Origin: an uncultured Candidatus Saccharibacteria bacterium
Lineage (GTDB): Bacteria > Patescibacteriota > Saccharimonadia > Saccharimonadales > JAUPVS01
Assembly (NCBI GenBank): GCA_964410185.1
Contig: CAYPFM010000002.1
Location: 200,047-240,253 of the forward strand
Length of the DNA: 40,207 bases
Direction of reading: 5' to 3'
Shown here: one piece after another, positions 1,392 through 25,820 of the stretch
How the letters are laid out: each line of letters begins with the position of its first letter
How positions within the stretch are numbered: the first letter of the stretch is position 1
Notes under the pieces: generated by a model
The model's database searches: none
Told to the model about the DNA's origin: nothing
Seen by the model: the letters and a program-made list of their open reading frames with translations, nothing else
Translations under genes and position numbers: made by a program

Positions 1392-1775
1392 ATGCCCATA
1401 ATCGCCGACCGGATTAGTCAGCTTGCTCCGCCCAACGAACTTGATTTATGGCGAGCTAAAGCCCACTGGCGCAATAGTTCGCTGCGCCCGGAAGCGGTGC
1501 CTGGTTACGAAGGTGTGCCAGTTGATGCGCTGGCAGTCTTGTGGGGTGCTATGCGACAGGGTGGTGTACAACGAGTGCTCGGCGAATCAGTGGCCGACCC
1601 CTTCGATTATGCAGATGCAGTAAAAGAAGTCTCCAATGCATGTATTGAATATGCGATTGCACTCACCGGAATTGAAATGACGGATAAAGTTGATCATCTG
1701 ACAGGTGGATTAGTGCCTTTCCTGGACGCAATTGTCGTTAATCATTCTATGGAAGCGGAGGCCGCCAATGGCTAG
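1392..1775 (+). CDS. hypothetical acidic 127-aa protein inserted between atpA and atpG
   Basis: The ATG lies 2 nt after the atpA stop. The TAG stop overlaps the atpG ATG by 8 nt, so the ORF fills the gap exactly. No TM segment, signal peptide or recognisable motif. Confidence 0.6.
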   Translation: MPIIADRISQLAPPNELDLWRAKAHWRNSSLRPEAVPGYEGVPVDALAVLWGAMRQGGVQRVLGESVADPFDYADAVKEVSNACIEYAIALTGIEMTDKVDHLTGGLVPFLDAIVVNHSMEAEAANG

Positions 1776-2630
1776 TACCCAACTCCTCAAGCGTCGCATG
1801 GGTTCAATTAAGAACACCAAGCAAATCACCAAGGCCATGGAATTGGTGTCGGCCAGCAAGATGCGCCGCGCCCAAGAAAGCGCCTACAAATCGCGTGACT
1901 TCCGCAATGTGGCTCGCGAAATTCTGACTCGTCTGCGTCAATTGACTGATGTTGAGCAGCACCCACTGTTCAAGCAACGTAAGATTAAGACTCGCTTGCA
2001 CGTGGTGATTGCCAGTGATCGAACGCTAGCCGGTGCTTACAACAGCAACATTATGAAGGCGTTTGCCAGGGCCTTACAAGAAGACCAAGAAATGGGCATT
2101 ATCAGCCAGGCCATCGTCATTGGTCGGCAAGCTGCCCGCTTTGCGGCAAAGTTACAAAATCTTGAAGTCGTGGCCGTTTACGAGCATTTTGCCGAGCACC
2201 CTACCGCCAATGACATTCGTCCGATTCTTAACACTCTTGTCGACAAGTTTGCTGACCGCACCGTTGACGCGGTTGATATCATCTACACTGACTACAAGAC
2301 CAGCTTGCGCCAAGAAGTTGAAGTTCAGCGCCTGCTACCCGCCGCCTTCCAAGATATTGAGATCGAGCCGGACCTGGAAAAGGCGATTTTTGAGCCATCA
2401 GTGCGGGCGGTTTTGGATAATGTCACCCTGCGTCTGATCGAGGCCCAGCTCAGCCAGGCCATTCTGGAAAGCTTTGCCAGCGAACACTCTATGCGGATGC
2501 TGGCCATGAAGAACGCCAGTGACAACGCGACTGAAATTATCGATGACCTGACCCTGGCCTTTAATAGTGCAAGGCAAGCCAGTATTACCCAAGAAATAGC
2601 AGAAATAACCGGTGGGGCGGAGGCAATCGC

Positions 2631-2634
<4 letters not shown>
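1768..2634 (+). CDS. atpG: F0F1 ATP synthase subunit gamma
   Basis: The N-terminus from ATG 1768 (MASTQLLKRRMGSIKNTKQITKAMELVSASKMRRAQ) is a canonical gamma start. GGAGG at 1757-1761 sits 6 nt upstream. The C-terminus ITQEIAEITGGAEA is typical. Confidence 0.9.
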
Positions 2635-4639
<2,005 letters not shown>

Positions 4640-5068
4640 GTGCTACGCTTTCAACTCGTAACCCTCGAAGGTACTAAACTAGACGAAGAAGTCTACGAAG
4701 TGCGCCTGCCTACCCCAGATGGTGAGATTGGTGTTTTTACCAATCACGCGCCACTGGTGAGTGTGGCTGTGCCAGGGGTTATAACGGTTAAGCGCGGCGC
4801 CAGCGACCCGGAAGCCAAGTGGGAATACTACGCCAGCAACGGTGGGGTTATCGAAATTGTCGAAGGTATTGTGCGCGTCTTGGTTGATGAAGCCGACCGC
4901 GAAGATGAGATCAACGAGCAAGAGGCTCAAAAGGCCTTCGAGAAAGCCAAGTCGATGCAAGCCGATGCCAAAGATCAGGTGACGCTCGAGCAGGCGCAAG
5001 ACTTAATCGACCGCCATGCGGTTCGTTTGCAGGTTGCCAACTTGCGCCGTCGCAAGACGCGCCGCTAA
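4640..5068 (+). CDS. atpC: F0F1 ATP synthase subunit epsilon
   Basis: GTG start directly follows the atpD TAA. The N-terminal beta-sandwich pattern (LPTPDGEIGVFTNHAPL) and helical C-terminus are epsilon-like, and the position is the last gene of the operon. Confidence 0.85.
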   Translation: MLRFQLVTLEGTKLDEEVYEVRLPTPDGEIGVFTNHAPLVSVAVPGVITVKRGASDPEAKWEYYASNGGVIEIVEGIVRVLVDEADREDEINEQEAQKAFEKAKSMQADAKDQVTLEQAQDLIDRHAVRLQVANLRRRKTRR

Positions 5069-5815: not shown

Positions 5816-8800
5816 TTCCGTTTAACAGGTCGTCCTCAAACTGCTTAATGCCTTTGAGGTCGGCAGAATACAAACTGGTGTCCGGGAAGTCGAGCTGCAT
5901 AATATGTTGCCAGACCACCGCCACCAGTTTTTCAATGCGCGCCACATCTTCTGCCTTAGGTACGTAATTGAGTTGGTGTATGACGCCATCTTCGTCAGGC
6001 TCGACAAACTGTAGCCCGAGCTGACTGACGTCGTATTGTTTAAAGTGGGCCGAGCCGTTAACGAGCAACTTATAAAAGACCAGTTGTTGCTGGTAGAGAT
6101 GGGCGGTTCGGCGCCGATCGGGGCTGGGGTGCCAACTCGTCAAAGGACGACTGGTTTTGTAGTCGATAATCGCCAGCTGATTGGTATCAAGCTCACGCAT
6201 AACATCGATTTTGCCGGTCAGTCGTGCTTCGCCGAGCACGACGCCCTCTTTTGCAAAGTTGTACTCGCTGCGGTCATTTGGCTTGAAGGATGTTTTTGCC
6301 TCGGGGTAGAAATCTTCCAGTGCGGTCTTGCCCCTATCCAGCAGTAGTTGCTTGTCGGCCTCGCTGAGACTCGACGACAACAGATTATCAGCAAAGACTT
6401 TCTGGACCATGCCCAAGCTGGGGAGTTTGAGGTGGCGGGCGTGCTGGGCGTGCATGTAGTGGAGAGTTTCGTGAATGGCGGAGCCGTAGACCGAACTGGC
6501 CGTAAAGGCTTCTGGGAAGTGCAGCAAATGGCGCATGAAGAAGTGTTGTGGACCGGCGTATTTGACATCGAGGAAGCTATTTAAGTGTGTGGCGCTGAGC
6601 TGATAGTTTTGCAGTGTGTGGCGCAGGCTGTCGGCTAAGGACTGCTTTTGTGGAGAGGTTATCTCCCAGTGGATTTCTTGGGTGCGCACTAAGTCGGCAG
6701 TTTTAGCCGGTGGCACCATTGTAATTGGCGGCAGCCCCAGAACCGCCTCGTTGAGCCAGCTGACTGGTTCGGTACTCTTACCGGCTAATGTCTGGCCGTA
6801 ACTCATGAGAGTAAGTCGTTGGCGGGCTCGCGTAAGCGCGACATAAAACAGTCGCAGATGATCATCATTACTTTCCCGACCTGGCTTAATCCAGGCCAGG
6901 TTGGTCGGTAGGCCAAAGCGGTAGCTATTATGACGGGTCTTGATGCCCCAGACGTCATTATGGACGGCGAGTAGGTAGACACTGTCCCACTCCATTCCTT
7001 TAGCCTTGTGCGCGCTCACCAGCTCGACGGCGTCGCTGCTGGTGCTGTGTGGATTGGTGTCAAGCAAATTGAGGCCGCTCTGCTGGTAGAGCTCAACAAA
7101 CTCGAGCAGATTGCTTAGGGTGAGTGGTTGCCCTGGTCGATATTCACGCAACTTCTCGCGTAAAGTGGTCAATTGTCCTAGTAGGCTGAAGTAATCCTGG
7201 CTGTGCGTTTGGAGGCGCTCCTGACTAAAGTAATACTGGCGATACGGAACGCGCCAACCTGGCACCACTTCCTGGTTACCGAGTAATAGATCAAACATGA
7301 CGTCAAGTGGCTTGCCAAGCGCCTGCTGGCTGAGCGCCGGTAGCGCTTGGGCAAAGCCTCGAATCGTTGGATCAGCGTGGTTTGCCATGACTTCTAACCA
7401 AAGTTGTTTTGATTTGTAGGCCTCGATGGACAGGTTCCATAAAACCAGCGGGTCAAGCTGCCAGTATTCGGCAGCCAACACCTTGGGAAGGAGGACATCA
7501 ACCTCTTGCCAACGCCGGTCGGCGGCGGCCTGAACAAGTTGCGCCAGTTGTATGACTTCAGCCACGTGCGGCTGAGTTAGGATATGTTCGCGTTTTTCGT
7601 AGTTAACCGGTACGCCACGATCGAGCAGATATGGTACCAGGGCACGTAGGTAGGCGTGCTTGGGTGCGATGACGGCGATACTACTCGGCTTGGCTCCCTG
7701 CTTGATTTGTTTGGCGATTGAGTCGGCTACCTGGGCGTACTGATCAAGCTCCGAAACAGTCTGGTAGCGGCTAATTTCGACTTTGGGTGCCGGTTGAAGG
7801 CCGCTACTGAGTTGTTTGGAAATGTCGGGTAAGCGGTTTTCGAGACGGTCGTCACCCTGGGTGATAACTTGTCGAGCCAAGTCCAGCAAGGGTTGCCCGG
7901 AACGGTAATTCTTGGTTAATACAATTTGTTGAACGTTCCGCCACTTTTGCGCAAAGTCGACCATGATTGATAGTTCGGCGCCCTGGAACCGAAAGATACC
8001 TTGGTCATCGTCACCGACTACCATAATGTTAGGGCGCTGTTCATTGACGGGGTTGTCGCACAGCAGGTCGAGTAGCTTGTTTTGGGCGCCGTTGGTGTCC
8101 TGGTACTCGTCCACCAAGATGTACTGGTATTGCTCTTGTAGGGTAAAGCGTAACTCGGGCTCAAGTTCCAACGCTTGGCTGGCGCGCAGGATCATGTCGT
8201 CGTACGAATACAGCCCCTTGCTTGCCAACGCGGCCTGGTAGCGGCTGTAAATAGTTGTCAGCGCCGCCAGCGTTTTGGTGCTACGTCGATCTTTAAGGAT
8301 CCACTTCTTGTGGTCGTTCTGAACCAGCCATTTATTGCGCCAGGCCGTTACGCTGGTTGCGAAACGCTTAGTCGGGTCGACCTGTTCGACGGCGGTGGCA
8401 AGTTCAGCAATAAAAAGGTCAGCCAGCGAGCGATCGGCCGACTTTGGGTTGTAGTCAGACAACTTTTCTAAAAGAGCCCGATAGTGTGGTAATTGTTTGG
8501 CGCTTGGGGTTTCGGCAAAGACTGGTTCGACCAGTGGTTCGGCGAACGCGACAAATTCTTGGTTGGCGTGCGTAATCGCGGTGAGTTGCTCGGGAGTAAT
8601 GCCAGCCTGCTTCAGCCAGCTAATCGCCGCACGAGCCGAGTTCAGATAGAAGAATTCGTTATCAAGTTTTTTTTGCAGGGCGTTGCTGTGTGGCAGGGTT
8701 GCAAAGACGTCAGACAGAATTTCGAACGCTCCCAATTCCTCAACCGGTTTAACGAGTGGGTGCTCGCTAAAGTACTCGGGGTAGCGTTGAATGATTTCGG

Positions 8801-12399: not shown

Positions 12400-14058
12400 C
12401 TAGTGGCTGTAGAAGCCGCGCACTGCAGTGTCGGGTGCCATCATTAAGCTCACGCCGGCCGTCTTCATGGCTGCCTTGACCTTATCGTCACCCAACGAGC
12501 CGCTGGAAGTAAGAATGGCGCTAATGCCGGCCTCGGCCAGAATGGTCGGACCATCGGGGAATGGGAAGAAACTGTCGCTGTAGGCCACTGCCCCGGCCAA
12601 CTTTTGTTTGTCTAAGGTGATGGTCAGAATCAGTTTGTCGCCCTTGGTAGCGAAGGCTGGCATGGCCGTGGTGGTGCGCGAGACGGCCAACTGACCGGCG
12701 CCGATACGGTCTTGTTGACCAACGCCGTTACCAATTAATTGCCCATTCTTAACCAGTGTAATTGTGTTGCTATTGCTGGTGCTCCCCACCGCCCAGGCGA
12801 GAATGGCATCACGCTTTTGTTGGCTGCTGACTTTGCCGATAATTTCCATATGGCTGGCCGATAAGTCATGTACAAAGGTGTAATTTGGCTGCTCCAGGGT
12901 GCCGCCACGCACGGGGCGTGATCGTCGTTTGGTGTCGAGCGAGGCTTCGGTGAGGTCGGCTAGCGCCGGGTTGACGATGACGCGCAGCTTGGCGCGGTTT
13001 AGTAGCTCCAAAGCTTCGTCTGTTACCGAGGCGCCAACCAGCCCATCGAGCATTCGTTTGCGCCCTTCGGGCATAAGATGATTCATTAAGGCATCTGCCA
13101 CGGCTTTATCAATGGTGCCGTTAATCATGATGACGCCGCCAAAAATCGCCCGTTCATCGCCTTCTAACATTAACTTAGCGGCTTCAACGTGGGTTTTGGC
13201 AACGGCCGCGCCACAGGCATTGCCGTGCTTGACGCCAACGGCCATGGCTGGGACTTCACCAAAATTACGCTCAAATCCAGCCGCGACGTGGGTGATGGTT
13301 TGCAATAGTCGGTCGACATCGGTCATATTGATGTAGCTTTTGGTCATCCCCTGAATGTGCTCAAACTGGTCGAGACCGAGCGGGTCAGGATTAACACGAT
13401 TATCGGCATAAAAGGCGGCGTCGGCCTGTTGTGGATTTTCGCCGTACTTCGTGGCCGAATCCTTACGCGCGATAAAGGCGCTGACATCTGTTTGGTTGGT
13501 GTGACGAACGATTGGTTGGTAGTAGCGGTTGGTTTCGTAAAAGGCGCGCGCCGCTAAGCTGGCGATGTACTCGGCTTCGTTTGGCTTGCCAGCCTTGAGC
13601 CAATCCAGGGTAGCTTGGCGCTGTTCGGCAACGGTTAGGACGATGCGACCCGACTTGGCAGCGCCGTTAATCATGGTTGGCCCGCCGATATCAATCTTTT
13701 CGATAATCGATTGTGCCGTAGCCTTGGCGTTGGCGATCTCGGACTCCAAAGGATACATATCAACACACACCAGCTCAAAGACCGGAATCTTCATTTCTTG
13801 TAAGGTTTTGAGATGTTCGGGTTTAGAAAGATCGGCCAAAATACCCGCATGGACGTTAGGATGAAGGGTGACGACACGGTGATCGAGAATGGCACCAAAG
13901 CCAGTTAGGTCGGCTACGTCAGTCACGGGAATCTTGGCTTCGCTGATGGCCTTACACGTACCACCCGAGGCGTAGAGTGTAAAACCTTCTTCGGCCAAAC
14001 CCTTGGCGAACTCAACGATACCGGTTTTGTCATATACAGAAATTAGTGCGTTCGGCAT
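12400..14058 (-). CDS. purH: bifunctional AICAR transformylase / IMP cyclohydrolase
   Basis: N-terminal MGS-like domain (ALISVYDKTGIVEFAKGL) and C-terminal AICARFT domain. AAGGAG SD lies upstream of the ATG. Confidence 0.95.
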   Translation of the reverse strand: MPNALISVYDKTGIVEFAKGLAEEGFTLYASGGTCKAISEAKIPVTDVADLTGFGAILDHRVVTLHPNVHAGILADLSKPEHLKTLQEMKIPVFELVCVDMYPLESEIANAKATAQSIIEKIDIGGPTMINGAAKSGRIVLTVAEQRQATLDWLKAGKPNEAEYIASLAARAFYETNRYYQPIVRHTNQTDVSAFIARKDSATKYGENPQQADAAFYADNRVNPDPLGLDQFEHIQGMTKSYINMTDVDRLLQTITHVAAGFERNFGEVPAMAVGVKHGNACGAAVAKTHVEAAKLMLEGDERAIFGGVIMINGTIDKAVADALMNHLMPEGRKRMLDGLVGASVTDEALELLNRAKLRVIVNPALADLTEASLDTKRRSRPVRGGTLEQPNYTFVHDLSASHMEIIGKVSSQQKRDAILAWAVGSTSNSNTITLVKNGQLIGNGVGQQDRIGAGQLAVSRTTTAMPAFATKGDKLILTITLDKQKLAGAVAYSDSFFPFPDGPTILAEAGISAILTSSGSLGDDKVKAAMKTAGVSLMMAPDTAVRGFYSH

Positions 14059-14067
14059 AACTACTCC

Positions 14068-17000
14068 TTACTTGCTTTGCTTCTCTGCCCAGTGCCGGGC
14101 GTTTTGGAACATCCGCAACCATGGCGACTGAGCTTCCCAGTTTGCTGGGTGCCAAGATAACTGCTGGGTCAAAAAGGCTCGTTCGGGATGAGGCATCATG
14201 ATGGTGACGCGGCCGTCTGGAGTGGTGAGGCCACCAATGCCCAGTGGGCTGCCGTTGGGGTTCTGTGGGTAATTGGCGGTTGGCTGTGCCTTGGAGCCAA
14301 CGTACTGAATGGCCACCAGGCCGTCAGCGATGGCCTGTCGGGCGGCTTTGGCGCTGTAGGCGGCTCGTCCTTCGCCATGAGCCACCGGAACCGGCAAACA
14401 GGCCGTTTGCATGTCTGTGAAGAAAATCGAAGGGCTGTCATTGACGGTGACCGTTACCAGCCGGGCTTCAAAGCGTTCCGAGGTGTTGGTTAAGAACTTT
14501 GGCCAACTTTGCGCGCCCGGAATCAGCTCCGACAAATTACTCAGCATCTGACAGCCATTGCAGACGCCCAGACTAAAGGTGTCGGGGCGATGGAAGAAGT
14601 CGTAGAAGGCCTGGCGCAGTGTCGGGTTGAAAAGGATTGATTTGGCCCAGCCCTCGCCAGCCCCCAAAACATCGCCGTACGAAAAGCCGCCACAAGCTAC
14701 CAAGCCAGCTAGCTCTTGGAGGATGGCTGGATTGGCAATGACATCATTAAGGTGTAGGTCGATGGCCGTAAAGCCAGCCGTATCAAAGGCGGCGGCCATT
14801 TCGACCTGGCCGTTAATTCCCTGCTCGCGGAAGATTCCAACTTTGGGTCGGGTTTTGTAGGCGGTTTTGGCAAGCGTTGGTTCGTTAGCGGCAAAGACTC
14901 CCGTAAAGGACGCATCACTAATGAGTTTATACTCCTGGTCGGCACCATGGGGGTTGTCGCGGAGGCGTTGAATCTGGTAGCTCGTTTCGGACCACCAGGT
15001 TTCGAGCTGGGCCCGGTCTTGCTGATACACAACCGTATTCTTATTGCTGAACACAATTTGTTGTTCGGCTCGTGGTTTGCCAATCTTGTAGACCGAGCTC
15101 TTGCCCAGGGCTTTAGTCAGGGCGCTGGTTACGGTGGCCACGTCTTTGTCGCGTACCTGCACAACCACGCCAAGCTCTTCGTTAAACAGTTTGTGCAGAT
15201 TGTCGCCTGGTAGGGCGCCGACATCAATGGCAAGGCCGCAGCGGCTGGCGAAAGCCATCTCTGCTAGTGTCACCAACAGGCCGCCATCAGAGCGGTCGTG
15301 GTAGGCCAAAAGTAAATCCTTGGCTTTCAGGCTTTGGATGGTGGTGAAGAAGTTTGCGAGTGGTTTGGCCTCGGCATCGGGCGTTTCATTACCGACCTGT
15401 CCATAGACTTGGGCTAAAGCCGAACCGCCCAGTCGTTGCTTGCCGTTGGCGAGGTCGATCAAGAGTAAAGAGCTCGCTTCGTCGACGGCCAACTCTGGGG
15501 TCAGTGTTTTGCTGACATTGTTGACAGGACTAAAGCCGGTAATCACCAATGACAATGGTGAGGTGACGGACATGTCGGTGCCACCATCTTGCCACTTGGT
15601 ACGCATGCTTAGGGAGTCTTTGCCTACTGGTATGGTCAGGCCCAGATCTGGGCAGAAGTCTTCGCCAACTGCTTTGACGGCATCAAATAGATGTTCGTCT
15701 TCTTGACCATAGCCGGCAGCGGCCATCCAGTTGGCTGATAGTTTGATGTCGGACAGTTTGCCGATGGAAGCGGCAGCCATGTTCGTAACTGCCTCAGCAA
15801 CGGCCATGCGCGCCGAAGCCGCGGCGTCGATCAAGGCAATCGGGCTGCGTTCGCCCATACTCATGGCCTCACCACTCTTGCTGCCAAAACCACTGGCCGA
15901 GACGGCCACATCGCTGACCGGCACCTGCCACGGTCCGACCATCTGATCACGGACGGTCAGGCCACCGACGTTGCGATCACCAATGGTGATGAGGAACTTT
16001 TTGCTGCCGACCGCGGGTAGTTGCAGGACTCGCTTGACGGCCTCAGAAAAACGAATGTTTTTAAGGTCAAGCTCGTCGTGCTCCACCTGCTTGCGCTCTA
16101 TGCGGCGATTCATCTTGGGTGGCTTACCGAACAGTACATCCATTGGTAGATCAATCGGGTTATTGTTGAAGAGTTCATCGTGCAACACCAGGCGCTCTTC
16201 TTTAGTGGCGGTACCAACTACGGCGATTGGGCAGCGTTCGCGCTGACAGATGGCTTCTAGCTGCGGCAGATCTTTTGTATCAAGTCCCAGAACATACCGT
16301 TCTTGAGCTTCATCACACCAGATTTCCAGCGGAGACATGCCGATGTCTGCATTGTGAATGGCCCGTAGCTCAAACTGTGCACCCAGGCCGGAATCATGCA
16401 CCAATTCCGGCAAGGCGTTGGACAGTCCACCAGCGCCAACATCGTGAATCGAGATAATCGGATTCTGTTTACCCAAAGAGGCCATGGCTGAAATTACCTC
16501 CTGAACACGGCGCTGCATTTCGGCGTTGCCACGTTGGACGGAAGCAAAATCGAGACTTTCATCACTGTCACCTTTCTGCATACTGGACGCGGCGCCACCA
16601 CCCAAGCCGATTAACATCGATGGACCACCTAAGACGACAAGCTGAACGCCATCATGTAAAGTGCCCTTTTCGACATTGTCGTCATCGATGGTGCCGATGC
16701 CACCGGCGATCATTAACGGCTTGTGATAGCCCCAAACTTCTTGATTGTGCGCCTGCTCAAAGGTGCGGAAGTAGCCCAGCACGTTCGGGCGCCCAAACTC
16801 ATTATTAAAAGCTGCACCACCCAAAGGTCCCTCAATCATGATGTCCAGCGGGCTGGCGATGCCGGAGGGTTTGCCGTAAGGCTTTTCCCATGGCCGTCCA
16901 TTACCAGGCAGATTTAGATTCGAAACATTAAAGCCGCTCAGACCCATCTTTGGTTTTGCGCCCCGCCCCGTGGCGCCCTCATCACGGATTTCTCCTCCCG

Positions 17001-17925
17001 AACCTGTCGCCGCGCCCGGGAATGGCGCGATGGCGGTGGGATGATTGTGTGTCTCGACCTTAATAACAATGTTGTCGGCTTTAGTGGTATAGCCATATTG
17101 GTGAGTCGAAACATCCGGCTGTAGCTGGTCGACTGGCTCGCCCTTCAGTATGGCGGCGTTGTCGGAGTAAGCCGACAAAATGTCGGTGGAAGATTTTTCA
17201 TAGGTGTTACGAATCATCTTGAACAAACTCTTGGGCTGCTTCTTGCCGTCGATGTGCCAGTCGGCATTAAAGATTTTGTGGCGGCAGTGTTCACTGTTGA
17301 CGACGCCGAACATCATCAGCTCAACATCAGTCGGGTTGCGGCCCAACTGCTGGTAGGCCGAGCAGAGATAGCTCACCTCATCATCTGCTAAAGCCAGTCC
17401 TAGACGAAGATTGGCGGCGGCGAGGTTTTTTGCGCCGTCATCACCAAGCACGTCGACGGTTTCGAGTCGTTTTGGTTGGGCTTGGTTGAATAGCTTTGCG
17501 GCGGCCTTCAAGCTTGGCAGAATCACTTCCGTCATGCGGTCATGAAGCAGATTGCCAACCACCTCTTTGTTGAACGGCTGGGTCGCATCGATGTAGTAGA
17601 CGACACCGCGCTCGATGCGTTTGACCTGGCTGAGACCGGAGTTACGGGCAATGTCGGTGGCCTTGGATGACCAGGGTGAAATGGTGCCCAGTCGTGGGAC
17701 GACAATCAGTTGACGCGACTTGTTGGCACCCGGGAATGGTTCGCCATAGGTAAGTAGTTCTTGTAGCTGGGCATTAGTTTCGGAAGAAAGGTGGCCCTCA
17801 AAGTCAACGAAGTGAATATATTCTGCCGTGATGCCGGAAATTTTTTCTCCGGCGGTTTTGAATTGTTGCAGCAGTTTTTTTTGTTGGAAGTCCGAAAGCG
17901 CGTTGATGCCGGTGTAGGTCTGCAT
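14068..17925 (-). CDS. purL: phosphoribosylformylglycinamidine (FGAM) synthase, single-chain large type
   Basis: 1285 aa with PurS-like N-terminus, duplicated PurM-like core and a C-terminal glutaminase (GVCNGCQ, HGEG). The start directly abuts the purM stop (TAAATG). Confidence 0.95.
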
Positions 17926-19062
17926 TTAGAACTTCACCTTTGGCTGCTTAGCGGCGAAAAATCCTTGATTGGCAATAGTGATACCCGGTTTGTCGGTAAT
18001 GATGCCGGCGGTTTGGGCTTCAATTCCGTGGGCCTTGGCGACGGCGATGACAGCCTCAGGATTAGGTGTGACAATTAGCATGCCATTGCCCATGTTCCAG
18101 GTGCGGTAGGCTTCTTCATCGCTGACATTACCCAGCGCTTGGCAGTGCAGCATCAGCTCGCACGGTGGGAATGGGTTGTCGATGACCGCACCTAAGCCGG
18201 AAGCACTCAGATTGCGACCGAGCTTTTCTGGGATGCCACCACCACTGATGTGAGCGACGGCGTGTAGGGCAGCTTTGGGCTTTTGCGACAGGTCATAGCC
18301 GCCAAACATCTCTACTACGGCCGCGGAGTAAATTTGCGAGGGTTGCAGGGCCAGGTCGATAATTTTCTTACCGTTCAGTTTGGCTGTTTCCCAATGCTCA
18401 CCGTACTCGTCTTTTAAGAGCTTGCGCACCAACGAAATGCCATTGCAGCGCAGACCCGTCTCGCGCATTGAAACAATGCTGTCGCCGGCTGCAACATCGT
18501 AACCAGTAATTAAACGTGACTCATGCGCGAACCAAGTGAGGTCGGCGCTCCATTCTAGGCGGAACTCGTCCATGTGGCCAATGCGGTCGTTCAGCTGGGC
18601 CAGCTCGCCATTAATGATGGCGACGTTGGCTTCTTTTGCGGCGGCCACGTAGCCTTTGGCCAGTTGTTCGATGTATGGCAGGCGGCTGGCGTCGGCGCCA
18701 AGGGTGTTAACATCCAGAACGCTCTTTACTAGTACCGGCACGCCACCGCGTACCACAGCGTCATCACAGACCATGGCCATCAAGTCGTAAGCTAAGGTGT
18801 CGTATTTGCCGGCGCGCTCGGCCAGTTCGGCCTTGGTGGCAACGCCATCAGAGCCACCGTACATTACCGTGCCGGCGGGGAGCTTATCGACACGGACAAA
18901 CCGGAGACCGGCGAAATCGTCATATGGCACAATAACTTCACCGAGGGCGCCCTTGCGGTTGGTCCAGGTTTGCTTAGAGGCGTTGTACAAGATTTTGGCG
19001 GCTTGAGCTTCGGTGTCGATGTCGACCCCAACTTGAGCATAGGTGGTTGCTGGTTTATTCAC
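17926..19062 (-). CDS. purM: phosphoribosylformylglycinamidine cyclo-ligase (AIR synthetase), long form
   Basis: YAQVGVDID N-terminus and DGVATK motif. GTG start is preceded by GGGAGA. 378 aa. Confidence 0.9.
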   Translation of the reverse strand: MNKPATTYAQVGVDIDTEAQAAKILYNASKQTWTNRKGALGEVIVPYDDFAGLRFVRVDKLPAGTVMYGGSDGVATKAELAERAGKYDTLAYDLMAMVCDDAVVRGGVPVLVKSVLDVNTLGADASRLPYIEQLAKGYVAAAKEANVAIINGELAQLNDRIGHMDEFRLEWSADLTWFAHESRLITGYDVAAGDSIVSMRETGLRCNGISLVRKLLKDEYGEHWETAKLNGKKIIDLALQPSQIYSAAVVEMFGGYDLSQKPKAALHAVAHISGGGIPEKLGRNLSASGLGAVIDNPFPPCELMLHCQALGNVSDEEAYRTWNMGNGMLIVTPNPEAVIAVAKAHGIEAQTAGIITDKPGITIANQGFFAAKQPKVKF

Positions 19063-19119
19063 TCAATCTCCCGCCTTTATGTTCTTAGTTTAATGGGTAT
19101 GGGCTGCTTCGCAAACAGT

Positions 19120-20403
19120 CTAAAGTACAACATTTGGGCTGGGCCTGAGGCCGATGTCGGTGCGGAACTGCATACCGTCAAAATGAATGGCTTTGATGGC
19201 TTGGTAGGCTTTGTGTCGGGCGTCGTCAATATCAGTTCCGTGAGCAGTCACATAGAGGACGCGGCCGCCGGCGGTTTTGGTGACGCCGTCTTCTTGGACG
19301 GTTCCGGCCTGGAAGATGACGATGTCGGGCTGGCTTTCAGCCTCTTCAATTCCGGTAATAGTAAAGCCTTTCTGATAGTTGCCAGGGTAGCCCTGGGAAG
19401 CCACGGCCACGGATATAGCCGTACCATCCTTCCAGGCCACACCCGAAGGATCGAGCTCACCCTTGGTGCAAGCCAGTAGTGTTGCATAGAGGTCACCATC
19501 AAATAGGCGCATATAGGTTTCAGCTTCGGGGTCGCCAAAGCGGGCGTTGAACTCAACCACATTAACGTTGTCGCCATCAATCATTAGGCCAGGATACAGA
19601 CAGCCGGTGAAATCGGCCTTCTTGGCTTGCATACCTTTGAGTGCTGGCTGGACGACCGTATCCTTGACGGTTGCCAAGTGGTCGGCAGTCACCCAGGGCA
19701 CGGGTGCAAACACGCCCATACCACCGGTGTTAGGACCTTTGTCGCCATCAAAAACCTGCTTGTGGTCCTGAGAAGCCGGGAACAAAACTGCTTGCTTACC
19801 GTCACAGAGTGCGTGCATGGATACTTCTTGGCCCTGCAGAAAATCTTCAATCACGACGGTGTTACCGGAGTCGCCAAACACCTTGTTGACCATGATGTTG
19901 TCGATGGCCGCTTGGGCTTCCTCAAGGTTTTGGGCGATCACGACACCCTTACCTTCGGCTAGACCGCTGGCCTTAACTACGATTGGGAGCGACCGAGTTT
20001 TGATATAGTCCATGGCCGCAACTGGATCTTCAAAGTTCTGGAAGGCCGCCGTTGGGATGTTTTGGTCCTGCATAAGTAGTTTCGAGAACGCTTTGGACGA
20101 TTCAATCTGGGCGCCAGCTTTGTCGGGTCCAAAAACGGCTAGTCCAGCTTCGCGAAAGACGTCGACGACGCCAGCGGCACTGGCGGCTTCTTGCCCAATC
20201 ACCGTCAGGTCGATGTTATTGGTTTGGGCGAAGGCCAGGAGCGCGGCGGCATCAGTAAAGCCAATCGGCACATTCTCGGCAATCGTGGCCGTACCGCCGT
20301 TACCAGGCGCCACAAACACCTTATCGACTTGCTTCGACTGGGCCAGTTTCCAGGCCAGAGCATGCTCTCGCCCGCCACTTCCAATCACTAAAACCTTTGC
20401 CAT
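19120..20403 (-). CDS. purD: phosphoribosylamine-glycine ligase
   Basis: N-terminus MAKVLVIGSGGREHALAWKL and an ATP-grasp core. The start overlaps the purN stop (TAATG). Confidence 0.95.
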   Translation of the reverse strand: MAKVLVIGSGGREHALAWKLAQSKQVDKVFVAPGNGGTATIAENVPIGFTDAAALLAFAQTNNIDLTVIGQEAASAAGVVDVFREAGLAVFGPDKAGAQIESSKAFSKLLMQDQNIPTAAFQNFEDPVAAMDYIKTRSLPIVVKASGLAEGKGVVIAQNLEEAQAAIDNIMVNKVFGDSGNTVVIEDFLQGQEVSMHALCDGKQAVLFPASQDHKQVFDGDKGPNTGGMGVFAPVPWVTADHLATVKDTVVQPALKGMQAKKADFTGCLYPGLMIDGDNVNVVEFNARFGDPEAETYMRLFDGDLYATLLACTKGELDPSGVAWKDGTAISVAVASQGYPGNYQKGFTITGIEEAESQPDIVIFQAGTVQEDGVTKTAGGRVLYVTAHGTDIDDARHKAYQAIKAIHFDGMQFRTDIGLRPSPNVVL

Positions 20404-21074
20404 TACTGGGCTCCTTTCTTGATAAATTCAGCCACATCAACGGGTAGTTTTTCGCGTTCGACGGCTCGAACCCGATCAAACAAGCTGTCCGGGGTATCCC
20501 CTTCTAGTACGGGCACCATATTTTCTGCTACGACCGGGCCGTCGTCATAGCCTTCGGCCACGACATGGAGCGTTTGCCCCGCTTCTTTAAGCCCTACTTC
20601 CAGGACGCGTTCTTGGACGTGGACGCCAAACAGTCCCTCGGTGGCCGGGAGCAGGCCTGGGTGGGTGTTAAGCATCGTGGCTTGGTAGGGACTGGTGTAG
20701 TCGTTACGCCACCCAAACTCGTGTACCAGCGTTGGGCCAATCTTCTTCATGTATCCCATCAAAACGATGGCGGCATACCGTCCTGCTCGTAAGACTTCGA
20801 GGAGTGCTTGTTCTTCGGCCTTGGATTGTTGTCCGGGACTAAGCGTTTCACTATCGCTGGGTGGGTGGGTTGAACGACCAATCACGAGGGTTTGAATACT
20901 CAGCCCGAGTTCGTTATTGAGGTTGGCGACGCGTTGTAAGATGCCGGCCTTGGGGTTGCTGGCAATAACCAGGCCAACCACCGGTTCAATTTGGCCGGCT
21001 GCACTGGCTCGGATGAAGGCTTCGGCAGTAGTCCCCTCCCCAGACGCCAGAATGGCAATAACTGGTCGGTTCAT
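20403..21074 (-). CDS. purN: phosphoribosylglycinamide formyltransferase (with ~30-aa internal insertion)
   Basis: Motifs NTHPGLLP and LHVVAEGYDDGPVV match the PurN active site. Confidence 0.85.
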   Translation of the reverse strand: MNRPVIAILASGEGTTAEAFIRASAAGQIEPVVGLVIASNPKAGILQRVANLNNELGLSIQTLVIGRSTHPPSDSETLSPGQQSKAEEQALLEVLRAGRYAAIVLMGYMKKIGPTLVHEFGWRNDYTSPYQATMLNTHPGLLPATEGLFGVHVQERVLEVGLKEAGQTLHVVAEGYDDGPVVAENMVPVLEGDTPDSLFDRVRAVEREKLPVDVAEFIKKGAQ

Positions 21075-21083
21075 GCCAAGTGC

Positions 21084-22544
21084 CTAGGCCAGTGCCTCAA
21101 CTTGTTGAGCTGTAAACGGCGTTGGGTTTTGTTTGTGTTCGTGGACTTTACTAAAGGTTTTGGCTTGGTCGCCAATGGCGATTGGATAGATTCCGTCAAA
21201 GCACGACATCGATAGTTGGTCTTGTGGCAAGCCCGTGGCGCGCACCATGCCCCTGATGGACAGGTAGTGTAGGCTGTCGGCACCCATGTAATCACAGATT
21301 TCGTCGTTGGACATGCGGGCGGCGATTAAATCGTCTTGCTCAGGCGTGTTGATACCATAAAAGTCGGGGTACAAGACTGGGGGTGAACTAATCATCAGGT
21401 GAATTTCTTTGGCGCCGGCATCGCGCAAGATACGTACCACTTGGCGCATGGTCGTGCCACGCACAATTGAATCATCAACCAAAATAATGCGCTTGTCTTT
21501 GATGCTCTCGACGATTGGGTTGAGCTTCATCTTAATGTGTCGTTTACGCAGCTCCGCGGTTGGCTGAATAAAGGTGCGGTGGATGTAGCGATTCTTAATA
21601 AGGCCCATATCAAAGGGAATGCCGCTGGACTGTGAATAGCCCAGGGCGGCCGGAATTGAAGAATCGGGCACCGGGATGATGACATCAGCTTCGACATCGA
21701 ACTCTTGCGCCATTTCGTGTCCCAGATTCTGGCGTACCTTGTTAACGCGCTGTCCGTTGATGATGCTGTCCGGTCGGGCAAAGTACACCAACTCAAAGAC
21801 ATCGAGCTTAGGATTGGCTTTAACAACCTGGTGGGAGGTAATGCCGGATTCATCAATCACAACGAGCTCACCTGGCTTTACGTCACGCAAGAAGGTGGCG
21901 CCGATGGTGTCAAAGGCACAGGTTTCGGAAGCAATCACATAACTGTCCTCGAGTACGCCAATCGACAGGGGGCGGATGCCGCATTCGTCGCGGAAGGCAA
22001 TCAGCTTGTCTTTGTCCATGGCTACTGACGAAAAGACGCCTGTAAACAACGGATAGGCTTCGATAATTGCTTCTTGCAGGCTTAAGCCGTCGGACATGTA
22101 TTCGGCAATGGCTGATTCCATTAAGCGGGTGTCGTTGTGCAGATCAACCGACACGCCACGCTTCTTTAAGAAGGACTTGAGTTTGCTAACATCTGGTAGA
22201 TTGCCGTTGTGAGCCAAGGCGAACTGCTGTGGTTGATTCAGGAAAGGCTGATTATAAAAATCGCCAGCACCACCAGATGTAGCGTAGCGATTGTGGCCGA
22301 TGGCAATATGACCCTTGAGCGCTTGAATGTTGTCGTCATGGTAGACATTGGCTACCAAGCCAGCTTCGGCATGTCGATACAACGCACTGCCGTCACTCGT
22401 CACGATGCCTGAACCCTCTTGTCCGCGATGCTGCAACGCCCATAACCCGTAAAAGGTTACACGAGCTGCTTCGTCGTTCGGGCTAAATAGTCCAAAAACC
22501 GCGCACTTCTCAGTTAACTGACCACTCAATGCCCCCATTTGCAT
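21084..22544 (-). CDS. purF: amidophosphoribosyltransferase
   Basis: Ntn catalytic Cys in TEK|CAVFGL after a 13-residue leader. PRTase motif IILVDDSIVRGTT and YFARPDS are present. Confidence 0.95.
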   Translation of the reverse strand: MQMGALSGQLTEKCAVFGLFSPNDEAARVTFYGLWALQHRGQEGSGIVTSDGSALYRHAEAGLVANVYHDDNIQALKGHIAIGHNRYATSGGAGDFYNQPFLNQPQQFALAHNGNLPDVSKLKSFLKKRGVSVDLHNDTRLMESAIAEYMSDGLSLQEAIIEAYPLFTGVFSSVAMDKDKLIAFRDECGIRPLSIGVLEDSYVIASETCAFDTIGATFLRDVKPGELVVIDESGITSHQVVKANPKLDVFELVYFARPDSIINGQRVNKVRQNLGHEMAQEFDVEADVIIPVPDSSIPAALGYSQSSGIPFDMGLIKNRYIHRTFIQPTAELRKRHIKMKLNPIVESIKDKRIILVDDSIVRGTTMRQVVRILRDAGAKEIHLMISSPPVLYPDFYGINTPEQDDLIAARMSNDEICDYMGADSLHYLSIRGMVRATGLPQDQLSMSCFDGIYPIAIGDQAKTFSKVHEHKQNPTPFTAQQVEALA

Positions 22545-22583
22545 ACGCGTTGCTTCCCCTCAATTACACGAACTCTTACGTTT

Positions 22584-22611
22584 ATCATACCATGCTGCCA
22601 CAAGCTGGCAA
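22584..22611 (-). promoter_or_regulatory. candidate promoter TTGCCA-N16-TATGAT upstream of purF
   Basis: Minus-strand -35 is plus TGGCAA at 22606-22611. Minus-strand -10 is plus ATCATA at 22584-22589. The predicted leader of about 33 nt contains GAGGGG. Confidence 0.4.
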
Positions 22612-22621
22612 CAGTCCTGGT

Positions 22622-23158
22622 TTAGGCTAGGTTGGCATGCTGAAGAATGAACTGGGCCCGTTCATTGGGGCTCAAAACCGGCACGCGGATGGGCGTCATA
22701 CCGTACTGACTGTAGGCGTCGTGCAGTAGCTCGGTGATCTTGTGGGTGAAGGCGGCGTCTTCGGTGCGGGCGTAATCTTGCTCAAACGTCGGCAACGGCT
22801 CTAACAAGAAAACCGTCTGGTAGCGGGCGGCTTGGAGGGCTTTTTGCATTGCTAGCGTTGGCTTCCAGCCTAGTGACGTGTAGTAGGCCAAGGAGTCATG
22901 CATACCTCGATCTAAAAAGGTCACTTGCCCAGGTTTAAGGCCAGCCTCGATGTCGATCTTGCGTGCCAGCACATCATCCTGAAACCGCTTCTCGTCGCGC
23001 CGAATTTGCTTGATGGTTAACCCACGTGCCAGTCCGTCATCAATTACCAAACGAGCAGCTTCGGGAATTGTTCTATGACCCTGTTGCTCGAATAGCTCAA
23101 GTAACGTAGTTTTGCCACTAGAGGGTCCACCCGTTAGCACAAACCAATTACTGGGCAT
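22622..23158 (-). CDS. AAA_28 / NadR-C-terminal-like P-loop ATPase (nucleoside-kinase-like)
   Basis: Walker A GGPSSGKTT and a FLDRG..D..AY pattern typical of the family. ATG 23158 is preferred over 23191 because the overlap with the upstream gene is shorter. Confidence 0.75.
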   Translation of the reverse strand: MPSNWFVLTGGPSSGKTTLLELFEQQGHRTIPEAARLVIDDGLARGLTIKQIRRDEKRFQDDVLARKIDIEAGLKPGQVTFLDRGMHDSLAYYTSLGWKPTLAMQKALQAARYQTVFLLEPLPTFEQDYARTEDAAFTHKITELLHDAYSQYGMTPIRVPVLSPNERAQFILQHANLA

Positions 23159-24116
23159 GATTAACCGCCGTTCTACCTGCAAAGGCGCCAATGCCTAAGT
23201 ACTCTGCGGCTGACTGCCAACCCTCTTGCGTGTCGTCGGGATTAATGTGAATAAAATCGACGTCACTATTGCGAGCCAAGCCACCATCTTTATGGCAGTC
23301 ATCGCCAACGTAGAGAACCTGGTTTTGGTGTTCAAAGTCGTGCGGTAGATCGTAGTTCCGCAGCCACTGCTGCCGAGCGATATCCATCAGGAGCGGCGAC
23401 GGCTTGGATAGTTCGGCTGGCGTGCAGACCCGCATGAGGCCAAGTTGACCGAGTAACTCCGTGCTAATAAGTATGTCTGGCGGCGGCACCTGCCAGAGTT
23501 CGTAGACTCGATGAATAAACTCATGGTGACCAGCCGAGATGGTAGCCGTTGTGATTTGTTCCCCATCTGTCCGGGCGGCTTCGAGCTGGGCGCTAAAAGC
23601 GAGATAGCCATTGGTTGGGCGTGGCCAACGATCGCCATCTTCAAACGGCAAACCAACCTGACTCAGTAAGTATTCCAGCTTCACGTCAGTCAGTAACTTA
23701 GTAATGGCTTCTAGTTCTTCGGGATCGAGCTTGCTGCGGTATCTGCCGTTGGCAGCCGCGTTAAGGTTGCTCAGTGATTTTATGATGTCGGCAGGCGCGT
23801 AGTCCAGCTGCGTCATGACGGTGATTTGCTCAAAGATTCGTACGTCCTTGGCCTTCGATACCAGACTGGCGGCAATTTCAATTGGCGTGCGGTTGTTGTG
23901 CTCGCCGCTGGCAATATAGGCGGCAAGGGCTGGTGCGCCATAGATATCACGAATACTTTTTCGGTAGGCTTCGTTGACACCAATGCCACCGGGCGAAGGT
24001 TCAAAACTCTGACACTGCGTACCGTCAAAGTCTGAGCTGAACAGCTTGGCCCCCTCAAAGTCGGCCGGATTGGCCGGGTGTTCGACAGGAAGTGTCAGCT
24101 CAGGCAATTCCGTCAT
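23148..24116 (-). CDS. HAD-superfamily (subfamily IA-like) phosphatase with enlarged cap region
   Basis: Motif I FSSDFDGT, motif II TISAG, motif III Lys in LSKPSP, motif IV YVGDDCHKD. Confidence 0.75.
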   Translation of the reverse strand: MTELPELTLPVEHPANPADFEGAKLFSSDFDGTQCQSFEPSPGGIGVNEAYRKSIRDIYGAPALAAYIASGEHNNRTPIEIAASLVSKAKDVRIFEQITVMTQLDYAPADIIKSLSNLNAAANGRYRSKLDPEELEAITKLLTDVKLEYLLSQVGLPFEDGDRWPRPTNGYLAFSAQLEAARTDGEQITTATISAGHHEFIHRVYELWQVPPPDILISTELLGQLGLMRVCTPAELSKPSPLLMDIARQQWLRNYDLPHDFEHQNQVLYVGDDCHKDGGLARNSDVDFIHINPDDTQEGWQSAAEYLGIGAFAGRTAVNHAQ

Positions 24117-24119
24117 AGG

Positions 24120-24638
24120 TTACTCCGGTATCTGGCTGCGCCAATCTTGCTGGACGGCAGCATCAAGTTTCACGACGTCACTGGCCATTTGGGCGCGGAA
24201 GGCCTGGTATTCGGCATGAAGAGCGTCATTATTCATGGCCAGCAGCTCAACGGCGAATAAACCGGCATTGTAGGCACCGTTTTCCGGGAAGACGGCCAGT
24301 GGCGCACCTTTGGGCATTTTGATGTTGGACCAGAGCGCCTCGTGATCGTGGTTGTCACGCTTAACCGGCACGGCCAGCACAGGAACTTCGGCCATAACAG
24401 CGGTCATGCCCGGGAGGTGGGCCGAGCCACCGGCTCCAGCGATAATTAAGCGAATGCCCCGCTCACGCGCGCTCATCGCGTACTCGCGCATCAGTTCTGG
24501 TGTACGGTGAGCCGAAATGAAACGGACTTCGTACGGAATTTTGAATAAATCAAGCGCATCGGGGGCACCTTGCATGATGTCGAGGTCTGATTTTGACCCC
24601 ATGATTACTCCAACGACTGGTGCTTCTGTTTTGCTCAT
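24120..24638 (-). CDS. purE: N5-carboxyaminoimidazole ribonucleotide mutase
   Basis: GVIMGSKSD and GAGGSAHLPG motifs. ATGA overlap with purK. Confidence 0.93.
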   Translation of the reverse strand: MSKTEAPVVGVIMGSKSDLDIMQGAPDALDLFKIPYEVRFISAHRTPELMREYAMSARERGIRLIIAGAGGSAHLPGMTAVMAEVPVLAVPVKRDNHDHEALWSNIKMPKGAPLAVFPENGAYNAGLFAVELLAMNNDALHAEYQAFRAQMASDVVKLDAAVQQDWRSQIPE

Positions 24639-25765
24639 ACTGCAATTCCCTTTCTGGCTTGATTAGCGCGCTTGCTGGCCTGGCGGGTGTTCTTACCGGT
24701 GCTGGTAATATGACCCATCTTACGATCAATTTTAACAGGTGTTTTGCCATACCAGTGAATATGCGTATCGGCCCGGACCAGCGCTTTGCTAAAATCTGGC
24801 TCGGCATCGCTGTTGCGAGTGCCCAAAATGTTAACCATCGACGCGGCGGGAGCTACTAAACTGGTATCGCCCAAAGGCAGGCCGGTAATGGCCCGAATAT
24901 GCTGTTCGAATTGCGAGGTGACGCAGCCTTCGATACTGTAGTGACCGGAATTATGGACGCGCGGAGCGATTTCATTCACCACTACTTCATCGTCTTTGAG
25001 CAGGAACATCTCGATGGCAAAGACGCCTGCTCCTTGCAGATGCTTGGCAACACGCTTCGCCAACTTGGTGGCATTCTTATAGGCTGGTTTACTAATGCTG
25101 GCGGGGGCCAAGGTCTCCAAACAAATGCTGCGTTCGTGGATCAGCTCGACCACTGGATAGAACTTGGTTCGTCCCTTGGTATCGCGGGCCACGATAACCG
25201 ACAACTCTTTTTTAAAGGGCAACAACTTTTCGGCGTACAGCTGGTCGGGCGCGAAGTGCTTCATGGTCTTGCGTAGTTCCTTGGTGTTTTTGATGACGAA
25301 GTTACCGCGACCATCATAGGCACCATAGCGAGCTTTAAGAATCATGCTGCCACCAAAGTCATCCAGGGCCACAAAACCGGCGCCCAGGTCGTGAATCGGT
25401 AGGTATGGTGCGACGGCCACGCCAGCCTTGGTTAGGAATTCTTTTTGCAGGAATTTGTCCTGAATCATGGCGATGGTCGCTGGGGCGGGATGCACTGGCT
25501 TCCCGCTGTCGGCGATTTTTTGCAGGCTGGCCGTGTCTAAGTGTTCGATTTCGACAGTGACCACATCACAGGCCCGCGCCAGCTGCCGCAACGCCTTTTT
25601 GTCATACAAACCACCAACGATTTGTTGGGCCCCTACCTGGGCTGCCGGGCAGTTTTTGGCCGATTCAAGCACCACGACGTTAAAACCGAGCGGCTTGGCG
25701 GCGAGCGTCAGCATGCGTCCGAGTTGCCCACCCCCCACAATGCCGATGGTTTTAACATTTCGCAT
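24635..25765 (-). CDS. purK: N5-carboxyaminoimidazole ribonucleotide synthase
   Basis: N-terminus IGIVGGGQLGRM, an ATP-grasp fold, and a position upstream of purE. Confidence 0.9.
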   Translation of the reverse strand: MRNVKTIGIVGGGQLGRMLTLAAKPLGFNVVVLESAKNCPAAQVGAQQIVGGLYDKKALRQLARACDVVTVEIEHLDTASLQKIADSGKPVHPAPATIAMIQDKFLQKEFLTKAGVAVAPYLPIHDLGAGFVALDDFGGSMILKARYGAYDGRGNFVIKNTKELRKTMKHFAPDQLYAEKLLPFKKELSVIVARDTKGRTKFYPVVELIHERSICLETLAPASISKPAYKNATKLAKRVAKHLQGAGVFAIEMFLLKDDEVVVNEIAPRVHNSGHYSIEGCVTSQFEQHIRAITGLPLGDTSLVAPAASMVNILGTRNSDAEPDFSKALVRADTHIHWYGKTPVKIDRKMGHITSTGKNTRQASKRANQARKGIAV

Positions 25766-25785
25766 TTAGCATATAATAACCCATC

Positions 25786-25812
25786 TTGGTCAAATTTGCT
25801 GCATGGTACAAT
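25786..25812 (+). promoter_or_regulatory. candidate purC promoter: TTGGTC-N15-TGgTACAAT, 8 nt from the ATG (leaderless candidate)
   Basis: TACAAT at 25807-25812 with TG at 25804-25805. ATG at 25821 with no SD. The same 55-bp spacer carries a minus-strand TATTAT (plus 25773-25778) 7 nt from the purK ATG. Confidence 0.35.
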
Positions 25813-25820
25813 AAACCGTA

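Follow-up and report, generated by a model that had tools for sequence, protein, structure and literature searches.

The locus described here lies at the start of a 40,207-nucleotide (nt) stretch of contig CAYPFM010000002.1 (assembly GCA_964410185.1, positions 200,047 to 240,253, forward strand), the whole of which is referred to as the window. The element under study is ORF127, an open reading frame (ORF) specifying 127 amino acids (AA) between atpA and atpG, the genes for the alpha and gamma subunits of the F1 part of ATP synthase. The organism is a saccharibacterium (TM7, Patescibacteria), the source material was apparently wastewater, and the nearest species representatives show 82–83% identity in atpG. 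The order atpA-atpG-atpD-atpC is a textbook invariant gene string; in the window the following features are found at its first junction.

37 to 1389, + strand: atpA (F1 alpha), from the ORF list and its translation, with the 5' end truncated at the window edge and the stop codon TAA at 1387–1389.
1381 to 1384, + strand: AAGG, a weak Shine-Dalgarno-like motif of putative function within the final atpA codons, 7 nt 5' of the ORF127 ATG.
1392 to 1775, + strand: ORF127, specifying an acidic, 127 AA orphan protein predicted to be all-helical (ATG 1392–1394, TAG 1773–1775).
1757 to 1761, + strand: GGAGG, the atpG Shine-Dalgarno sequence, inside the 3' end of ORF127 and 6 nt before the atpG ATG.
1768 to 2634, + strand: atpG (F1 gamma; PF00231, 5.5e-83; TIGR01146, 8.5e-82).

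The atpA translation is 92% identical to a full-length atpA product from another Saccharibacteria locus, L001. ORF127 starts 2 nt past the atpA stop, and its 3' end overlaps the atpG ATG (1768–1770) by 8 nt. A preliminary description of this DNA had given the positions of the atpA stop, ORF127, the atpG ATG, the 8-nt overlap and the embedded GGAGG, all of which proved exact. It had also held that the gap contains a coupled ORF and not spacer, and this is borne out by the conservation of frame, length (124–127 AA) and junction geometry in all the relatives found. After shuffling the segment 20,000 times the frame was still open in just 0.2% of cases, and each of the remaining five frames of the segment contains 3–10 stop codons. 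Between positions 1 and 5400 of the window no terminator-like sites were found on the + strand, promoter-like sites were not in excess, and a search for structured RNA revealed none.

Homologs of ORF127 were sought in several ways. A word-index search of 5.8 billion proteins returned the query alone, and exhaustive phmmer analysis of 1.84 billion representatives yielded three true relatives of 124–127 AA with 34–41% identity. The phmmer matches P0004, P0006 and P0007 were rejected, being weak scores summed over the tandem repeats of giant repetitive proteins. A profile search raised the family to five clusters (P0001, P0002, P0003, P0005 and P0009) in the 5.8 billion proteins, and a metagenome scan added one further locus, L084. 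By word-index, phmmer and profile searches alike the relatives are confined to Saccharibacteria-type atp loci; each member lies directly 3' of atpA and shows the same 8-nt overlap with atpG. The motif (G/A)AAGG stands at an equal distance from the start in 5/5 loci with ORF127 homologs, in which a counterpart of the atpG Shine-Dalgarno sequence (GGAG, GAGG or GAAGG) is also found. ORF127 founds a new, tiny, lineage-restricted protein family.

ORF127 is a genuine, selected and fast-evolving protein-coding gene. Identity by codon position across the family is 0.53, 0.67 and 0.33, the second position being the most and the third the least conserved. The members at loci L082 and L085 differ by 51 synonymous and 12 non-synonymous changes (dS about 1.0), giving a ratio of non-synonymous to synonymous rates (dN/dS, ω) of 0.04 (p=1.6e-26), while L083 and L084 give ω=0.24 (p=0.003); close pairs show no sign of diversifying selection. 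The preliminary description had named an unconserved frame or a dN/dS near 1 as signs of a spurious ORF, and neither is seen. Twenty-six positions are invariant across the family, including an N-terminal W-R-A motif and a glycine-rich G-A-x-R-x-x-G-x-Q-R turn. Since the protein sequence is under purifying selection, the protein must do something. Where ORF127 identity is 34–40%, that of atpA is 91–96% and that of atpG 86–91%, and dN reaches about 0.6 for ORF127 where it is about 0.08 for atpG. Because synonymous sites are saturated at that distance, this speed reflects weaker constraint over a long time and not a recent explosive change. Three other assemblies contain ORF127 but are DNA-identical to the window there, and hence yield no population-level dN/dS.

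The composition of ORF127 sets it apart from its neighbors, as the preliminary description had judged by eye from its codon choice. The G+C content of third codon positions (GC3) is 0.45, compared with 0.58–0.60 for atpA, atpG, atpD and atpC and 0.57–0.63 for most other genes of the window, and the codon CGA occurs three times, against once in the approximately 1340 codons of the four atp genes. ORF127 thus has the AT-richer, atypical composition of orphan genes embedded in native operons. The product was correctly described as acidic and lacking a transmembrane segment: its isoelectric point (pI) is 4.56, with 18 aspartyl and glutamyl against 9 lysyl and arginyl residues and a grand average of hydropathicity of 0.05, and no hydrophobic stretch of membrane-helix length is visible by eye. 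Low GC3 values (0.40–0.48) are also found in window genes at 35364–35630 (- strand), 39649–40077 (- strand) and 31680–32675 (+ strand), among them one of 88 AA with a SHOCT domain and one of 142 AA lacking a Pfam match; these genes may be further recent acquisitions.

AlphaFold2 modeling from four sequences predicted a seven-helix bundle (predicted local distance difference test score, pLDDT, 85; predicted template modeling score 0.81). As had been said of it at the outset, the protein could not be assigned to any family. No match was found in Pfam or NCBIfam at E<=1, in PHROGs or PADLOC, or by sequence in the PDB at E<=10. Foldseek comparison of the model with the PDB gave a best E-value of 1.6 and a TM-score of 0.27, and the PDB and BFVD together a best E-value of about 1.3–1.6 with TM-scores of 0.42 or less. 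When the family profile was aligned with those of the alpha, beta, gamma, epsilon, delta and b subunits using hhalign, the probability was 0.7% or less. No paralog was found in the window, and the family is absent from phage records (tblastn) and from viral contig scans. ORF127 is not a core F-type subunit, having neither homology to one nor universal presence with the enzyme, and it shares neither homology nor fold with zeta/DUF1476, IF1, AtpTheta, Atp11 or Atp12. The idea that ORF127 substitutes for the missing N-terminal part of a short delta subunit was rejected because delta is about 131 AA in 55/55 related loci, with or without an ORF at the alpha/gamma junction, and because no delta/OSCP fold match was obtained.

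The delta subunit (atpH) of these 55 loci, for example at L001 1576–1971 and L084 816–1211, aligns to positions 54–170 of the 172-position Pfam OSCP model, so that roughly half of the N-terminal helical domain is missing; its shortness is independent of the presence of junction ORFs. This domain normally holds the N-terminus of alpha. The delta of Southlakia epibionticum is 126 AA.

The spacing of atp genes was surveyed in the 80 species-level atp loci most similar to the window, together with the window itself; the preliminary description had pointed to atpA-atpG spacing in relatives as informative. Gaps of at least 150 nt are present at the alpha/gamma junction in 34/80 loci, at gamma/beta in 53/78 and at beta/epsilon in 35/70, compared with 1/53, 5/54, 1/53 and 0/56 at the upstream a/c, c/b, b/delta and delta/alpha junctions, respectively. 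In 40/80 of the related operons the alpha/gamma gap is 30 nt or less. The large gaps are 84–93% open on the operon strand versus 42–55% in shuffles, and none of the alpha/gamma gaps is open on the reverse strand. Across 121 junction ORFs the start codon typically lies no more than 4 nt from the stop of the preceding gene, and the ORF closes at the start of the following gene or shortly ahead of it. Their products are acidic (median pI 4.5–4.7), their GC3 lies below that of the atp genes in 62/65 loci, and recognizable pairs show a coding signature, the proportion of non-synonymous differences (pN) being below that of synonymous ones (pS).

Iterative profile searches left 116/156 junction ORFs as singletons, and the families that emerged are junction-specific. 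Pairs with weak similarity (E<=0.1) come from the same junction in 54 cases as opposed to 22, an excess over the expected 35%. All eight patterns of three-junction occupancy occur, and in 15/69 species all three are empty. Only 3/148 junction ORFs match a Pfam family other than as atp fragments, namely 23S-rRNA-IVP/Avd (PF05635, best E-value 2.9e-35), which is also the sole family present in two different junction types:

L007, 3963 to 4337: IVP/Avd-family ORF at the beta/epsilon junction.
L039, 3617 to 4009: IVP/Avd-family ORF at the beta/epsilon junction.
L056, 1315 to 1524: IVP/Avd-family ORF at the alpha/gamma junction.

With the exception of Avd, the 148 junction ORFs match no phage family, and a defence library gave a single marginal match (SspC, 2.5e-4). 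Neither they nor ORF127 contain a nuclease domain. No genes at F1 junctions, at the atpA/atpG position or elsewhere, were found described in the literature on Saccharibacteria and Patescibacteria, atp operons and inserted orphan genes, which agrees with what had been said of the alpha/gamma position. The repeated presence of orphans at the three F1 junctions in Saccharibacteria is apparently an undescribed pattern. ORF127 is one case of this phylum-wide pattern and one of two orphans in its own operon; the preliminary description was right to treat it as real, and its uniqueness did not hold up.

Several other observations were made on the surveyed loci. The apparent alpha/gamma ORF at L061 3317–3820 matches ATP-synt_ab and ATP-synt_ab_C and is therefore part of a split or frameshifted atpA (pseudogenization or assembly error) and not a true junction ORF. 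In L012, L019, L029 and L059 the atpG match spans 930–996 nt versus 861, which suggests an insertion within gamma making it 20–45 residues longer. Two gamma/beta ORFs, of 165 and 92 AA, lie at L081 1948–2720, and L084 has a 179 AA gamma/beta ORF (4036–4575) and a 57 AA beta/epsilon ORF (5975–6148), where the window has none. L081 and L084 are the nearest relatives of the window, with atpA and atpD identities of about 95%.

A rough neighbor-joining distance tree was constructed from part of atpA and part of atpG. The loci with ORF127-family members form one clade. Its sister, L001, bears an unrelated 161 AA ORF at the alpha/gamma junction; beyond it branches L002, with a member of the agB family, and then L003 and L004, with compact alpha/gamma junctions. 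No similarity among the occupants of the ORF127, L001 and L002 junctions was detected by profile-profile comparison, cross-frame tblastx or blastn, and attempts to relate ORF127 to other alpha/gamma ORFs by family hidden Markov model, profile-profile and iterative searches, tblastx and blastn likewise failed. Members of the agB and PPLP families occur in scattered parts of the Saccharibacteria tree, always at the alpha/gamma junction in the atp loci examined. The patchy occupancy and the replacement between sister lineages suggest that the slot is old and recurrent and that its content has often been gained, lost or replaced, or else has diverged beyond recognition.

The second orphan of the operon, ORF213, fills the next junction, and the rest of the F1 block is arranged as follows.

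2619 to 2623, + strand: GGAGG, in the 3' end of atpG, 7 nt 5' of the ORF213 ATG.
2631 to 3272, + strand: ORF213, an orphan of 213 AA (pI 4.3, GC3 0.42) filling the atpG/atpD junction.
3257 to 4639, + strand: atpD (F1 beta), from the ORF list, with 74–96% tblastn identity to atpD of related loci.
4640 to 5068, + strand: atpC (F1 epsilon; PF02823, 5e-18), with a GTG start right after the atpD stop (gap of 0 nt).

The start codon of ORF213 overlaps the atpG stop in the sequence ATGA, and its 3' end overlaps the atpD start by 16 nt; the beta/epsilon junction of the window is empty. Nothing above threshold was found for ORF213 in Pfam or NCBIfam, the 5.8-billion-protein search returned only itself, and tblastn of the related loci gave no match; L081 and L084, the closest of these, carry unrelated ORFs at gamma/beta. 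Like ORF127, it does not match PF05635 or phrog_3206, which represent the 23S rRNA IVP/Avd family. A single-sequence AlphaFold2 model of ORF213 (pLDDT 38) was too poor for a fold search. A metatranscriptome of the same wastewater study (run X3) contains a 151-nt contig identical to ORF213 at 2669–2819; this contig is the sole RNA-library sequence specific to the operon and may be DNA carry-over.

Elsewhere in the window, Pfam matches outline a cluster for the de novo synthesis of purines at 12400–28165, with purH-, purM-, purD-, purN-, purF-, purE-, purK-, purC- and purB-like genes. It also holds a 1285 AA ORF (14068–17925), an AAA_28 gene and, separating the purF- and purE-like genes, an orphan of 322 AA. 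To our knowledge such a cluster is unusual for Saccharibacteria, which are generally described as unable to synthesize nucleotides. The assembly L087 (JGI 3300045319) lacks 92 nt of atpG, corresponding to window positions 2332–2423, which would frameshift the gene, and shows two non-synonymous differences in atpA; it is otherwise identical to the window. Either an error of assembly or a defective variant may be responsible.

The explanation that best accounts for these data, with a probability of roughly 0.55, is that ORF127 is an orphan acquired by one Saccharibacteria sub-clade that rides in a slot of the F1 operon and relays translation. The many unrelated families in the slot, its patchy occupancy and the F1-unrelated folds of some occupants indicate a dispensable passenger or accessory and not a core subunit. 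Later acquisition is supported by the low GC3 of ORF127, the monophyly of its family clade and the presence of other ORFs, or none, in the sister lineages. The passenger role is supported by the 15/69 species with empty junctions, the three IVP/Avd occupants and a non-essential gamma/beta occupant of Southlakia with a deoxyribosyltransferase-like fold, discussed below. Whether the protein is a dispensable passenger with a function that need not concern F1 is judged an even bet. The likeliest specific role, though itself held to be less likely than not, is that of a non-essential F1 modulator or helper produced in parallel with alpha and gamma, as guessed from the position of the gene; a cytoplasmic function unrelated to F1 that exploits the expression of the operon is at least as likely. 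The earlier suggestion of a later-acquired, non-stoichiometric component is thus upheld by lineage restriction and codon usage, and the further proposal of a regulator, inhibitor or assembly factor, to which no sequence or fold links ORF127, stands as only a possible one.

On the preferred reading ORF127 would lack a separate promoter and terminator and would be transcribed along with the F1 genes. Ribosomes ending atpA would re-initiate on ORF127, to judge from the geometry of the junction (TAA, 2 nt, ATG, with a weak AAGG); they would then pass over the atpG GGAGG and terminate 8 nt into atpG. The inserted 378 nt would stay translated, and the coupling of alpha to gamma would be relayed and not broken, with no untranslated RNA exposed. 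Presumably insertions persist only if they are translated through in such a manner, which would explain the exact filling of the gaps. 

Several points weigh against this reading. A model in which any gene can ride does not predict restriction to three F1 junctions, which hints at a function linked to F1. The constancy with which the agB and PPLP families keep to the alpha/gamma junction in the loci examined, scattered as they are in the tree, fits a position-specific function. What look like separate families could also be a single one whose members no longer resemble each other, as the 34–40% identity of ORF127 against 86–91% for atpG allows. Metatranscriptome support, which the preliminary description had proposed as a check, was not obtained: the four metatranscriptomes of the source study contain no coverage of ORF127, the organism being too rare there.

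The strongest rival is that ORF127 specifies a dedicated, lineage-specific F1 accessory protein, binding alpha and/or gamma and either helping F1 to assemble or restraining wasteful ATP hydrolysis. Encoding within the operon would ensure that it is made together with F1, and the other junction ORFs would be analogous fast-evolving factors. The main argument for such a link is the limitation of junction ORFs to alpha/gamma, gamma/beta and beta/epsilon, with their near-absence at a/c, c/b, b/delta and delta/alpha; to this may be added the position kept in 6/6 ORF127-family members, the excess of weak similarities within the same junction and the tight coupling at both ends. The F1 inhibitors epsilon, zeta, IF1 and AtpTheta arose independently in their lineages (PMC9317440; 10.1101/2021.07.30.454416), and control over the direction in which the enzyme runs is of real concern in Saccharibacteria, which have no respiratory chain (PMC10633639). 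This explanation is nevertheless held to be doubtful. Neither sequence, profile nor fold resembles any ATP-synthase subunit, inhibitor or chaperone, the composition is orphan-like, and occupancy is patchy, with none of the junctions occupied in 15/69 species. Mutually unrelated families share one junction and turn over between sister lineages, and some occupants belong to families having no connection with F1. As a result the comparative picture weakens the case for an F1 function relative to the preliminary description. Slightly less likely again is the broader proposal that the junction ORFs of Saccharibacteria are rapidly diversifying partner proteins of the F1 head, with a slot after each of alpha, gamma and beta, which tune assembly or the direction or latency of the ATPase to an episymbiotic lifestyle; ORF127 would then be the alpha/gamma-slot member of one sub-clade. 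Another conceivable reading is that these junctions, being always translated, serve as nurseries for the birth of new genes.

An origin in mobile or conflict cassettes is improbable. Here the junctions of conserved atp genes would be recombination landing pads in naturally competent Saccharibacteria, and the small genes in them would be exchanged horizontally and evolve under the pressure of a phage/host arms race. Replacement of the alpha/gamma occupant between sister lineages, leaving no remnant and no cross-frame similarity, is in keeping with this, as are the scattering of the agB and PPLP families over the atp tree, the low GC3 and the occurrence at two junction types of 23S-rRNA-IVP/Avd genes, which are known from many genomic contexts. 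It is opposed by the lack of phage families other than Avd among the 148 junction ORFs, in which SspC is the one marginal defence match, and by the absence of the ORF127 family from phage records and viral contigs. Within its clade ORF127 seems to be vertically inherited under ordinary purifying selection, and it has no accompanying repeats, integrase or nuclease. Finally, a frame acting only in cis, in which translation across a spacer avoids polarity and keeps atpG coupled and the sequence itself is irrelevant (at the extreme, a chance ORF), would suit the exact, same-strand-only filling that the window shares with most large junction gaps and the extremely fast protein divergence, but is rejected as scarcely credible because the protein sequence is under selection, as seen in the codon-position pattern, the ω values of both close pairs, the 26 invariant residues, the confident fold prediction, the pN < pS of other junction ORF pairs and a chance-ORF probability of 0.002.

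The junction-slot pattern is a more interesting result than ORF127 itself, for which the practical gain is modest: an annotation as a genuine gene from a new family, without an assigned function, is appropriate. In a phylum of ultra-small episymbionts, extra genes that are under selection, coupled in translation and unrelated to one another are retained time and again at three internal junctions of the F1 block. These genes are either a lead to new partners of ATP synthase or a clean natural system for the study of orphan genes. The former would matter in that the role of the enzyme in Saccharibacteria is unclear and it is dispensable in Southlakia (PMC10633639); the latter would show how orphans enter, survive and turn over in an operon of the essential type.

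A precedent at another junction comes from Southlakia epibionticum ML1, in which SEML1_0356, a 'hypothetical protein' gene, separates the gamma and beta genes (supplement of PMC10633639). Like ORF213, it is a same-strand gamma/beta orphan, whose ends overlap the stop of the preceding gene (4 nt) and the start of the following one (8 nt). ORF127 differs in position, Southlakia having no alpha/gamma ORF, and in fold, the level at which the two were compared: the authors describe SEML1_0356 as nucleoside-deoxyribosyltransferase/DUF4406-like, whereas ORF127 is an unmatched helical bundle. Among the junction ORFs, weak Pfam matches are not enriched for the deoxyribosyltransferase/DUF4406 fold. SEML1_0356 and the whole Southlakia atp operon are non-essential by transposon sequencing (PMC10633639). 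This gamma/beta example, in a cultured and transformable species, makes the question directly testable.

Compared with known small regulators, ORF127 resembles the epsilon C-terminal domain, zeta of Paracoccus, mitochondrial IF1 and cyanobacterial AtpTheta in being small, non-core and, on the model, helical. By analogy with zeta, IF1 and AtpTheta it may modulate F1 in its own lineage, and an inhibitor of this kind would suit an organism that lives by fermentation and in which the enzyme may operate in reverse. It differs from all four in having no homology or fold match to them. Zeta, IF1 and AtpTheta are not known to be encoded between F1 genes.

AtpI/AtpZ, and AtpQ/AtpR of N-type operons, are small membrane proteins encoded before atpB or among the Fo genes. 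ORF127 is like them a non-core gene within an atp operon, and an AtpZ/AtpI gene heads the Southlakia operon. Unlike them, it lies between alpha and gamma, does not match their Pfam models and is predicted to be a soluble helical bundle. Free-standing homing-endonuclease genes lie between conserved genes of T4-like phages, and the presence, absence and replacement of small genes at the junctions of conserved genes are common to both systems; in contrast, ORF127 and the 148 junction ORFs have no nuclease domain, reside in a cellular genome and show no evidence of homing.

Orphan genes can insert beside native genes and be expressed from native promoters (Price, Arkin & Alm 2006, PMC1480536; review PMC12315717). 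Like those orphans (PMC1480536), ORF127 is narrow in range, short, AT-richer at third positions, fast-evolving under purifying selection and located downstream of a native gene. Unlike appended orphans, it sits inside a highly conserved operon and is coupled at both ends. It also departs from known orphan pairs in that the same three junctions are reoccupied phylum-wide by many families and no phage source is detectable. An orphan gene beside a native gene is the nearest established concept for ORF127, which displays the defining features examined.

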